A stretch of 64,000 nucleotides of DNA from an uncultured delta proteobacterium (GTDB taxonomy: Bacteria; Desulfobacterota; RBG-13-43-22): positions 96,001 to 160,000 of the forward strand of contig CAVUPH010000014.1 in NCBI GenBank assembly GCA_963743305.1. The letters run 5' to 3'. Numbering within the stretch: the first letter of the stretch is position 1; each line of letters starts with the position of its first letter. The notes beneath the pieces were generated by a model. It was not told the DNA's origin, did not search any database, and worked only from the letters and a program-made list of their open reading frames with translations. Below are positions 2,746 to 4,664 of this stretch, piece after piece. Made by a program: the position numbers and the translations under genes.

Positions 2746-4664
2746 TCATTTCGATTCCTTTAAAAACCGTTCGTCCCCGATGCGCCGGGTGAAGCCGATC
2801 GTGTCCAGATATTCCAGGACCGGAATGGAATGGGTCCGGCCGTAACCGAGCACGGCTTTAGCATCTGGAAGGATAAACCGGCCTTGGGCGCGGATGACGT
2901 CTTTCACCTTTTTTTTGATTTCCTCCATGGCCTCGGTGGTGAGAAAACGATTATCATTCAAACGGACGAGCTTTTTCCGACTCTGGAGGTGATCCAAAAG
3001 CTTTTGGATAGTTCGTTTGTCGTATTCCCGACCGTGCATTTTGCAAAAAAAGCCGGCGGAGAAAGACCCATAACCCAGATTCCGAGCATGTTCGAGCAAT
3101 ATTTCAGCCAGTTTTTCCTGGTTTGGGGGAAGACAGCCCTTCAAATCGGGGAGGGAATAGCCTTGGTCGGTTCTAACAAGTTTCCCTTCTTTCAGCATGG
3201 CAGCCAACAAACGTTCGAAAGGGGCCTCGTGAAGCTTGGGGTCCAGCCGGCATCGGATTTCTTTTGCGGCGGCAAACAATTTGAAGGCATCCTGATGGAA
3301 GAATTCTTTGATAACCACGGGTAATTCACTTTTTAAGACTTCGTAGCGAGCCCGGAGGAAAAATCCGTGGCCGTTCAGGTTCAGCAATTCCCCGGCCTTC
3401 AGCCGGGAATCTATCTCTTTTCGAATAGCCTCCTCGGAAAAACCGGTAACAGCCGAGATTTCTTTTGGGGTGACCGGACGATGGGGGCTCCTCGGAAGTA
3501 TAAACCGGTGACGGTCTTCAAGTCGTTCCGGCGGAGCGGCCGCAGGTAGGCTAGGACCTTTTCGACCTTGACGGCCCTGAACTTTTCCTGGGTGGGCTCA
3601 ATGATGGTCCCCCCGCCGATGACCGAATTGTAATTCATGGGGCCGATGACGAAAGGGTCTCGAGGGATAACGGCCAACGGGTCGTCCAGCCGGAACTGGA
3701 CCAACCCGGTTTCTCCCGGGTAAAGCCTATCCCGGGTCATCAAAACAACCCGGGCTTGGATGAGGCTGGTCCCGAGGAAGAGTTTGATTCGCTGCCGGTC
3801 GACCAGCGGCAGCTTCGCCCTGCTCAAGAGCGTCAGTTCCGCATTCAGAAAACGGACGGGACGAAGAAAATCAGGGGCGGCTAAAACCATCCCGGGTTTT
3901 ACTTCCTGGGCACTTATTTTATGGAGGTTAATTCCAACCCGCTGCCCGGCCACCGCCTGGTCAACCTTCCGATGGTGGACCTCCTGAAAACGGGCTTTGG
4001 TTTCCTTGAACCGGGGGAAAAGATGGATCGGGTCGTCTCTGTGAATCACTCCACTGTAAATGGTTCCACTGACCACGGTCCCGAAGCCGGATAAACTTCT
4101 GGTCTGATCGATCCAGAGCCGAAAAGGGGCCTGGATGGACCGGGTCCCCACTTTTTCTAGGCCATTGTCCAGGGCGATCAGGATTTCGGAGAAACCCCGG
4201 CCGGTCAAAAATGAAAAGGGAATGACCGGTTGATCTTCAAACACGGTACCCTTGACCGTCTCCCTGATTTCCAACTCGGCCAATTCCAATGTTTCCTCAT
4301 CCACCAGGTCGGCTTTGCTGAGAATAATAAAGCCGCTTCGGGCACCCAGCATTCGTAAAACTTCCAGATGGTCCAGGGTCTGCGGCATGACGCCGTCGTC
4401 GGCCGCCACGACCAGCATGGCCATATCCACCGCGCTTAAACCGCGTATCGTATTTTTCAGAAAATCACTGTGACCGGGAACATCGACCAAGGCGACGGAA
4501 TTACCGGAAGGCAATTTGAGTGGAGCTGCCCCCGGTTCGATGGTTGATCCCCGGCGCTTTTCTTCTTTGAGCCGGTCGGTGTCGATGCCGGTTAACCGTT
4601 TAACCAGACTGGTCTTGCCGTGATCCACGTGCCCGGCAACGCCTACAGTGATTCCTGTTTCCAT
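2746..4664 (-). CDS. selB: SelB-like elongation factor (divergent, SelB* type) with one frameshift near 3485-3500
   Basis: GHVDHGKT, DVPGH, SKAD GTPase motifs; C-terminal winged helices ending IPVLEYLDTIGFTRRIGDER. Adding 1 nt joins the two ORFs into 639 aa. Confidence 0.9.

Follow-up and report, generated by a model that had tools for sequence, protein, structure and literature searches.

The window analysed here, 64,000 nucleotides of an uncultured delta proteobacterium (assembly GCA_963743305.1, contig CAVUPH010000014.1, positions 96,001 to 160,000), carries on its minus strand a diverged gene for the selenocysteine (Sec) elongation factor SelB, directly downstream of a tRNA gene. The gene (2746-4664) is almost certainly a member of the SelB* clade, linked to its selC* tRNA. 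Taken as a whole, the selC*-selB* module probably encodes a SelB paralog dedicated to the delivery of cysteine (Cys), with substitutions that are traits of the clade and are held under purifying selection. The original prediction for this locus had pointed to substitutions in the Sec pocket and in the fourth winged-helix domain (WH4), which binds the selenocysteine insertion sequence (SECIS).

The partner gene, selC* (tRNAReC; 4707..4798, minus strand), encodes a 92-nt tRNASec-like tRNACys; the ATG of selB* (4664) lies 42 nt downstream of it on the same strand. ARAGORN reports tRNA-Cys(gca) from the GCA anticodon, and the Rfam tRNA-Sec model RF01852 matches positions 1-91 with 50.8 bits (gathering score 47), in keeping with a tRNASec-like fold that has a long variable arm. 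The acceptor stem has 8 bp (GGGGGCAA/TTGCCCCC) and is followed by T, the discriminator U73, and an encoded CCA. The tRNA is homologous to 14 other selC*-like tRNAs, and U73 is found in all. In the D stem (4775-4790) the window has GGGGC...GCGCCCC where two genomes of the same order (G020 and G014) have GGTGC...GCATCCC; the difference reads as a compensatory pair which keeps the stem. U73 is described as an identity element of tRNACys (PMC7609411), and selC* carries both this element and the GCA anticodon. In E. coli tests, tRNAs of the selC* type are reported to translate UGA as Cys (PMC5389517; PMC11415595); likewise, a GCA tRNACys of tRNASec shape is reported to read UGA as Cys and to be delivered by SelB, not EF-Tu (PMC13582414; PMC11415595). 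Since selB* partners a tRNASec-shaped tRNACys, the carrying of Cys is its natural reading.

Alignment and trees with canonical SelB and SelB*, the check proposed with the original prediction, place the window copy in the SelB* clade. The trees (FastTree, unrooted) have 89 and 39 rows. In the larger tree, 43 SelB*-like proteins are split from 46 canonical ones (31 close ones and 15 from other phyla) by a branch of 0.97 with 100% local support; the window is sister to P0002, its closest intact homolog. The 39-row tree has the same split. The 119 best database relatives of the N-terminal half are 56-79% identical to it, and most are about 640 aa long; named hosts of related proteins are Desulfomonilaceae, Thermodesulfobacteriota, Desulfosarcina and 'Deltaproteobacteria'.

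At the level of the order, an ortholog is present in 3/21 genomes: the genome of the window (G000), G020 and G014. It is absent from three genomes of the same genus. An even sample of the phylum has a SelB*-like gene in 17/401 genomes (E <= 1e-110). At 15/17 of these loci a homologous long tRNA lies just upstream on the same strand, with a GCA anticodon in 8 and UCA in 7. U73 is common to all 15 of these tRNAs, and A1:U72 is found in two of those with UCA. The two loci with no tRNA have 1.5 kb and 0.5 kb of upstream sequence. Canonical selB is also present in 8/8 genomes checked. In the genome of the window this second copy is intact (639 aa, contig C4), has the motifs RGITIELGF, PVDRVF and SRKYTIPLLEYFD, and is about 43% identical to the window copy; a tRNASec with a UCA anticodon and G73 before CCA is found on a contig other than that of the window.

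The three unusual peptide motifs that had been noticed are all present in the minus-strand translation. RGSTIEPGA (4527..4553; residues 38-46) is at the end of switch I, and LWIDQTR (4098..4118; residues 183-189) is in a domain-2 strand. The third, GYGRTHSIPVLEYLD (2803..2847), is the WH4 counterpart of the canonical (S/G)RK(Y/L)xIPxLEY(F/L)D. Alignment to solved SelBs puts Ala46 opposite the aromatic lid (E. coli Tyr42, A. aeolicus Phe45), Asp186-Gln187 opposite Asp180-Arg181, and Arg242 opposite Arg236. The window also has Pro44 at E. coli Leu40, Trp184 for Pro/Ala178 and Arg189 for Phe183.

The assignment of Tyr42, Asp180, Arg181 and Arg236 to the Sec pocket in the original prediction agrees with the A. 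aeolicus structures, as described in Itoh 2015 (PMC4605307). There, Arg241 (E. coli Arg236) is the stacking partner of Phe45 (E. coli Tyr42) and is bound in a salt bridge by Asp185 (E. coli Asp180); His229 holds the amino group, and switch-I Arg30 is near the thiol (PMC4605307). At position 186, E. coli has Arg181 and other SelBs also have a basic residue; in A. aeolicus it is Ser, and the neighbouring Arg198 compensates (PMC4605307). The importance of Arg181 by mutation is reported via the same paper (PMC4605307). Of the features of a functional Sec pocket (aromatic lid, Asp180, a basic residue at 181, Arg236), the window lacks the lid and the basic 181 and keeps Asp186 and Arg242.

The pocket columns were counted in 119 SelB*-like and 120 canonical proteins. 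At the lid, SelB*-like proteins have Ile (65) or Val (54) and canonical proteins have Phe (119, with 1 gap); the window has Ala. Leu40 is Pro (65), Ser (53) or Ala (1) in SelB*-like proteins and Leu in 119 canonical ones (window Pro). Pro/Ala178 is Trp in 114 SelB*-like proteins and Pro in all 120 canonical ones (window Trp). Arg181 is replaced by Gln in 118 SelB*-like proteins, with Arg in 1, and is Arg in 120 canonical proteins (window Gln). At Phe183, where canonical proteins have Phe (120), SelB*-like proteins have Arg (82), Lys (24), Ser (8), Trp (3) or Asn (2), and the window has Arg. Other pocket residues are shared by the two groups and the window: Asp180 (119 SelB*-like and 120 canonical), the pocket His (119 and 120), Arg236 (119 and 120) and the switch-I Arg (117 and 119).

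A further canonical sample of 65 SelBs was taken from loci of many phyla. These loci came from a genome-contig search with P0002, which matched generic GTPase patterns; 29 non-SelB GTPase rows (L062-L090) were dropped. All 65 have Phe or Tyr at the lid, Arg at Arg181 and Phe at Phe183. The usual SelB motifs are therefore as the original prediction had given them, in the 120 relatives and in the 65 further proteins alike. The lid is Phe or Tyr in 184 canonical rows, and the residues of the window and its clade occur in 0/185 canonical SelB rows; their being common in proven Sec-inserting SelBs had been named as a finding that would count against the proposal.

On these counts, the unusual pocket residues are a signature of the whole SelB* clade, and only Ala46 is private to the window among SelB*-like proteins. 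In addition, a basic residue (Arg or Lys) is found two positions after the Gln in 106/119 SelB*-like proteins, and the window has the same feature. This residue would face the same side of the beta strand as the lost Arg. Because Arg181->Gln comes with the basic residue at +2, the pocket appears to have been remodelled, not simply neutralised.

One selC*-linked protein differs from the rest of the clade. The second SelB of genome G108 (L137/L169; G108:C36:23373-25256) is linked to a selC* (GCA, U73), and its pocket is canonical (EPGF, PIDRVF) save for the Pro. On the selB model it reaches 365.9 bits, and the canonical copy of G108 reaches 377.9. It branches early, next to all the other SelB* proteins, and may represent an intermediate. 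The selC*-linked series in the 39-row tree comprises EPGF/P..DRVF in G108, EPGV/W.DRVI in one family, and E(P/S)G(I/V)/W.DQV(R/K) in the core. Read from this unrooted tree, the order of steps would be Leu40->Pro; then the lid to Val or Ile, with Pro178->Trp; then Arg181->Gln, with the basic residue at +2. That SelB* has undergone a stepwise rebuild of the pocket into a Cys-specific site which rejects Sec-tRNASec is a tentative idea, and we regard it as rather doubtful. As a separate observation, SelB* proteins beside GCA tRNAs have IEPG (8/8) and those beside UCA tRNAs have IESG (7/7; ESGV in L135) among loci L121-L137; this split may be simple phylogeny.

WH4 residues of SelB read the SECIS loop. 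The WH4 columns were counted in proteins of 620 aa or more, 111 of them SelB*-like and 119 canonical; 8 and 1 shorter proteins were dropped. The Arg of (S/G)RK is invariant in both groups (111 and 119). The following Lys is present in all 119 canonical proteins; in SelB*-like proteins it is replaced by Thr (63), Ser (22), Asn (10), Arg (9), Asp (1) and others, so that Thr, Ser or Asn is found in 95/111. The next residue is Tyr in all 119 canonical proteins and mainly Arg (47), Val (38), Ile (10), Gly (7) or His (3) in SelB*-like ones; the window has His. The residue before GR is Tyr (106) or Phe (5) in SelB*-like proteins and Ala, Thr, Val or Ser in canonical ones. LEY(L/F)D and T.R are present in both groups. 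E. coli SelB WH4 reads GVGRKLAIQILEYFDRIGFTRR; GxGR and IGFTRR are not unusual, since the E. coli and Moorella sequences show them. The original prediction had thus drawn the WH4 contrast too strongly: compared with E. coli SelB, a proven SelB, only the Lys (here Thr) and the next residue are changed. As the domain is conserved, SelB* WH4 presumably still binds a hairpin. Several SelB*-like proteins have no Pfam SelB-wing_3 match or are short (8/119 are below 620 aa); these include a 628-aa protein from a named Desulfosarcina genome.

The most likely mechanism combines these features. The selC* tRNA (GCA, U73) would be charged with cysteine by the ordinary cysteinyl-tRNA synthetase (CysRS). 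SelB*.GTP would then bind Cys-tRNA(selC*) via the 8-bp acceptor stem, as SelB does, and the cysteinyl group would be held in the remodelled pocket (aliphatic lid, Gln181, basic residue at +2). The conserved winged-helix domains would dock on SECIS-type hairpins, and Cys would be inserted at selenocysteine-type recoding sites alongside the canonical SelB/tRNASec pair. In this scheme we infer the binding of Cys-tRNA, the effect of each residue and the SECIS targets from sequence comparison.

The stretch 2746-4664 is one gene with a one-base frame break, not one open reading frame. The original prediction, which gave this interval for SelB, is wrong on the continuity of the frame, which changes at the C5 run 3483-3487. 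On the minus strand the ATG at 4664 opens frame A, whose product starts with METGITVGVAGHVDHGKT and whose stop is at 3411; the winged-helix half is in another frame, frame B, which is open to 2746. The N-terminal part (frame A, 3483..4664, minus strand) has 394 codons homologous to relatives and contains the GTPase domain, domain 2, beta-barrel domain 3, a spacer and the start of WH1; past 3483, frame A is out of register as far as the 3411 stop. This half matches Pfam GTP_EFTU (PF00009), GTP_EFTU_D2 (PF03144) and Beta-barrel_SelB (PF25461), and scores 262.7 bits on NCBIfam TIGR00475 selB (cut-off 242.25). The C-terminal part (frame B, 2746..3483, minus strand; 245 codons plus stop) contains WH1-WH4. 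It matches Pfam SelB-wing_3 (3.5e-14) and SelB-wing_2 (PF09106 and PF09107 both matched), and aligns with Moorella SelB 1LVA/2PLY/1WSU and E. coli 2PJP. By tblastn, P0002 (669 aa) is 79% identical over residues 3-396 in frame A, ending ...TGLYFRGAP, and 71% identical over residues 393-638 in frame B, from HRPVTPKEIS on.

The break site (3481..3487, minus strand) consists of the C5 run (3483-3487) followed by AT. Intact homologs have 8 residues between GLYF/LFF and the next K/T; the window needs 1 extra base for 8. The site is one base short of in-frame, and a -1 shift is needed to rejoin the frame. The relatives read TTT CCC AAC CGT CCG GTC here, in frame. Programmed -1 slippage on C CCC, which would give a homolog-like peptide, was considered and rejected as the main explanation: the relatives are in frame at this point and have a different sequence. 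The 417-aa frame-A fragment has already been deposited as a called protein (P0001).

Apart from this break, the gene appears free of decay. At clade columns conserved to at least 90, 95 and 98%, the window has 7, 2 and 0 deviations, against averages of 6.7, 1.9 and 0.5 for the clade. There are 87 columns with at least 98% conservation in the SelB*-like clade. In relative-rate tests against P0002 with 9 outgroups, the window has 28-37 private changes and P0002 34-43, none significant; the FastTree branch of the window is 0.17 and that of its intact sister 0.21. Against G020 and G014, dN/dS (NG86) ranges from 0.136 to 0.162 in the N half and from 0.180 to 0.239 in the C half, which is out of frame, with dS of 1.5-2.0, near saturation; the value between G020 and G014, both intact, is 0.144. 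A real frameshift accompanied by decay in dN/dS had been named as grounds for rejecting the prediction; the frameshift is present, and neither dN/dS nor the rate tests show decay. Among the other clade members, P0064, which belongs to the short or WH4-less proteins, is one of the most deviant at conserved clade columns (7).

Frame breaks are common in this assembly and in its sisters. A survey compared 400 kb of two same-genus genomes (G003 and G004) with contigs C5, C17, C20, C23 and C24 of G000; a codon-usage filter was applied, the raw counts (37 and 26 sites) being inflated by out-of-frame tails. True coding-frame breaks were found in 9/205 long orthologous ORFs here and in 10/185 in the two same-genus assemblies (about 4-5%). 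Such a share of frame-broken long genes is far above that of finished genomes, which gives a high prior of indel error for any one break and suggests that G000 and the sister assemblies are indel-prone. One of the surveyed breaks is at an A7 run in a gene of about 1400 aa. The selD gene of this genome, broken next to a G run, and selA, which is in two pieces in two same-genus assemblies, also speak for an artefact. The break in selB* can be inferred to be an assembly indel error or a very recent lesion, not old decay. We lean towards an assembly artefact, and a real recent lesion retains a sizeable chance. Neither Ala46 nor the frameshift should be over-read, assembly frame breaks being common.

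A number of points weigh against a working, dedicated Cys carrier. With its GCA anticodon, the tRNA may read UGA by mismatch, or it may read UGC/UGU. Same-genus relatives live without selB*, so the gene is dispensable. It is broken as deposited, and it is the only internally broken SelB*-like gene of the phylum sample; of the 16 others, 15 are open throughout (638-807 aa) and one is cut short where its contig ends. Among the sequencing runs listed for the stretch there is no RNA run; six DNA runs contain small shares of it, with patchy contig coverage. A 189-nt contig from one of them, X1 (3308-3496), agrees with the window throughout, the C5 run included (0 differences, 0 gaps); it has a depth of 2.8, ends 9 nt past the run and is possibly from the source sample. 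selA is not found by TIGR00474 or PF03841 in this genome, which is 90% complete. The literature searched contained no experiment on any SelB*, and a 2020 review presents recognition of selC* by SelB* as a hypothesis (PMC7609411). Published discussion of SelB* pocket residues was likewise not found; the 2018 tRNAReC study, which may treat them, and the supplementary images of Mukai 2017 lay outside that search.

The pocket itself also supplies points on this side. The canonical SelB pocket binds cysteine, as described for a crystal with L-Cys (PMC4605307), and canonical SelB is reported to deliver Cys-tRNAReC (PMC11415595); the pocket changes are therefore not needed merely for Cys acceptance. 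They are not required for selC* linkage either, since G108 keeps a canonical pocket. The proposal that Tyr-to-Ala and Arg-to-Gln fit the acceptance of Cys thus holds in part. In its favour, the residues are non-canonical and the partner is a tRNASec-shaped tRNACys. To its detriment, they are clade traits, the Gln comes with a basic residue at +2 (A. aeolicus SelB offers a precedent for such a relocation), and neither the Asp-Arg pair nor the His nor the switch-I Arg has been lost. Acceptance of Cys fits the selC* linkage; the claims for single residues are weakened by the relocated basic residue and by the canonical pocket of G108.

If the frameshift is real, the locus would be a recent pseudogene or would encode a truncated 417-aa EF-Tu-like protein without SECIS-binding domains. 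This explanation falls short of an even chance and is nonetheless a serious one. The break is in the deposited assembly with P0001 on record, the X1 contig repeats the C5 run with no gap, and the accessible text of Mukai 2017 describes selB* pseudogenes with premature stops (PMC5389517). Same-genus relatives have no selB*, and in this same genome selA was not found and selD is frame-broken. The locus has also been rearranged, as seen from the truncation of the upstream hdrD-like gene at about 5079 and the replacement of hdrA downstream. Against a real frameshift, the 639 codons contain no second defect and dN/dS is 0.14-0.24 in both halves; the branch is 0.17 against 0.21 for the sister, and no relative-rate test is significant. 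Breaks in about 4-5% of long ORFs in three assemblies are typical of indel errors, and the X1 contig is shallow, ends just past the run and may come from the same sample.

A different role for an intact gene would be that of a second Sec factor, which carries Sec-tRNASec and reads other SECIS hairpins, with pocket changes that are neutral or compensated. The retained Asp-Arg salt bridge, His and switch-I Arg and the +2 basic residue in 106/119 proteins are compatible with this, as is the A. aeolicus SelB, described as working with Ser and a relocated Arg (PMC4605307). WH4 departs from the canonical form at conserved positions, and the anticodon is UCA in 7/15 linked tRNAs. However, each of the 15 linked tRNAs combines U73 with the same acceptor stem as the GCA forms, and the tRNASec of this genome has G73. 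In 119/119 SelB*-like proteins the aromatic stacking partner of the pocket Arg is gone, and Arg181 is reported to be important by mutation (PMC4605307). A second Sec factor is thus unlikely.

SelB* might also not deliver to the ribosome at all and serve instead as a guardian or sequestering protein for Cys-tRNA(selC*), or as a regulator that binds SECIS-like RNA. The archaeal MM1309 is reported to bind Cys-tRNACys and slow its hydrolysis, with no ribosomal role shown in the accessible text (PMC4329189), and no SelB* target mRNA was found in this analysis. Such a role is more improbable still: the GTPase motifs, domains 2 and 3 and four winged-helix domains, all under purifying selection, amount to a full SECIS-dependent delivery apparatus, and selC*-type tRNAs are reported to decode UGA as Cys in E. 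coli (PMC5389517; PMC11415595). Drift in a redundant duplicate with no function of its own, which the patchy distribution (17/401 genomes; absent from same-genus relatives) and the members with no detectable WH4 match might suggest, is very improbable given substitutions near-fixed in a deep clade (Gln 118/119, Ile or Val 119/119), 87 columns with at least 98% conservation, dN/dS of about 0.14 between intact orthologs, and a tRNA linked at 15/17 loci with a compensatory D-stem change.

The gene upstream of selC* (5070..6242, minus strand) encodes an HdrD/HmcF-like CCG iron-sulfur protein, which is found upstream in all three order-level selB* loci. In the window it matches its relatives perfectly up to ...KRLPK (about 5079) and then diverges; the last 50 or so HdrD-like residues of the relatives are in no frame downstream of this point. 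With L121 and L122 compared, the site looks like a rearrangement breakpoint beside the selC*-selB* module. The HdrD-like frame has a TGA at 5070, and 82 more codons are open if it is read through; no homology to the relatives was found in this read-through stretch. With TGA read as Sec over 4800-12000, no selenoprotein gene was found next to selB*.

The region downstream of selB* holds hdrA in the relatives and a yqeB set in the window. The first of these genes is yqeB (1880..2689, minus strand; TIGR03309, 273.6 bits), which encodes a selenium-dependent molybdenum cofactor biosynthesis protein. It is followed, on the same strand, by a MocA/YgfJ-like gene (1076-1756; TIGR03310), a gene for an AhpD-like arsenosugar-associated peroxidase (643-1053; TIGR04169) and the gene for ArsS (1-633; TIGR04167), which runs off the window. 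A leader hairpin was sought in the 153 nt that span the tRNA 3' end and the first part of selB* (4560-4712, minus strand); their fold does not surpass that of shuffled sequences (z -0.27). A scan of 2600-5150 for promoters and terminators gave no more hits than expected from shuffled sequences, and it found no promoter on the minus strand.

Other selenium genes of the genome were also located. selD (G000:C26:75850-76774) has an in-frame TGA (...AAG-U-ASK...) and a frame change beside a G run, with its N and C parts in different frames. The arsS frame contains a TGA at ...GFS-U-GG..., which lies 360 nt ahead of the first base of the window and eight codons before a second TGA. The organism uses selenocysteine, since selD has its in-frame TGA, as does ArsS. 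A short hairpin follows the ArsS TGAs (region G000:C14:90000-97000). selA is present in 19/20 genomes of the family and is split into two pieces in two same-genus assemblies. In the family relative G008 (G008:C31:24601-26990), selA occurs in a second copy, and right behind it comes a SelB-like open frame of 398 aa, which is 38% identical to the N half of the window copy.

SelB* has been described before. According to the accessible text of Mukai 2017 (NAR 45:2776, PMC5389517), selB* is a second selB downstream of a (8/4) selC* tRNACys in Syntrophobacterales and Desulfobacterales; its products form one clade apart from canonical SelB, and some copies are pseudogenes. By comparison of the sequences, the window gene is an ordinary member of this known clade. 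It shares the order selC* then selB*, the presence of canonical selB and tRNASec in the same genome, the separate SelB clade, and a tRNA with an 8-bp acceptor stem, U73 and GCA; occasional pseudogenes are also described there (PMC5389517). It differs in having no cysS* downstream, as expected for a G1:C72/GCA tRNA, in its frame break, in Ala at the lid where the clade has Ile or Val, and, relative to its nearest SelB* relatives, in the yqeB/mocA-like/ahpD-like/arsS set downstream in place of hdrA. The passages and legends of Mukai 2017 that were searched do not mention pocket or WH4 residues (PMC5389517), and the SelB* residue signature is not in print within the reach of our search.

Canonical SelBs (E. 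coli 5LZB-D; A. aeolicus 4ZU9; Moorella 1LVA/1WSU) share with the window copy the seven-domain architecture, the GTPase motifs, the Asp180-Arg236 pair, the His, the switch-I Arg, the WH4 Arg, the (F)TRR segment and, for its N half, a TIGR00475 score above the cut-off. In contrast, the window has Ala at the lid, Arg181->Gln with Arg at +2, Pro/Ala178->Trp and Leu40->Pro in the pocket, and Lys->Thr and Tyr/Leu->His in WH4. In Desulfotomaculum nigrificans, tRNAReC reportedly works with canonical SelB, as Vargas-Rodriguez et al. are said to have shown in 2018. This tRNA is, like selC*, a tRNASec-shaped tRNACys(GCA) that is described as SelB-delivered and as placing Cys at UGA/SECIS sites (PMC13582414; PMC11415595); an ordinary SelB is used there, whereas the window has a dedicated, diverged paralog beside the tRNA. 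The archaeal MM1309/aSelBL (PMC4329189; PMC3037878) is likewise described as a GTPase of the SelB/EF-Tu family that binds Cys-tRNACys and not Sec-tRNASec. Unlike SelB*, it is a three-domain protein of 350 aa with no winged-helix SECIS domains, uses ordinary tRNACys and is of independent origin.

SelB* is thus already named in the literature, and the clade column counts give it a concrete residue signature along with a possible intermediate in G108. Both are useful for understanding how a Sec-specific factor becomes a Cys carrier, and for SelB engineering. If the stepwise rebuild of the pocket is true, then together with the WH4 change from Lys to Thr, Ser or Asn it would mean that these organisms have two orthogonal SECIS-guided channels, one for Sec and one for Cys, which possibly use different hairpins. 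The residue set would in that case offer a natural template for engineering a SelB to deliver Cys or other residues.

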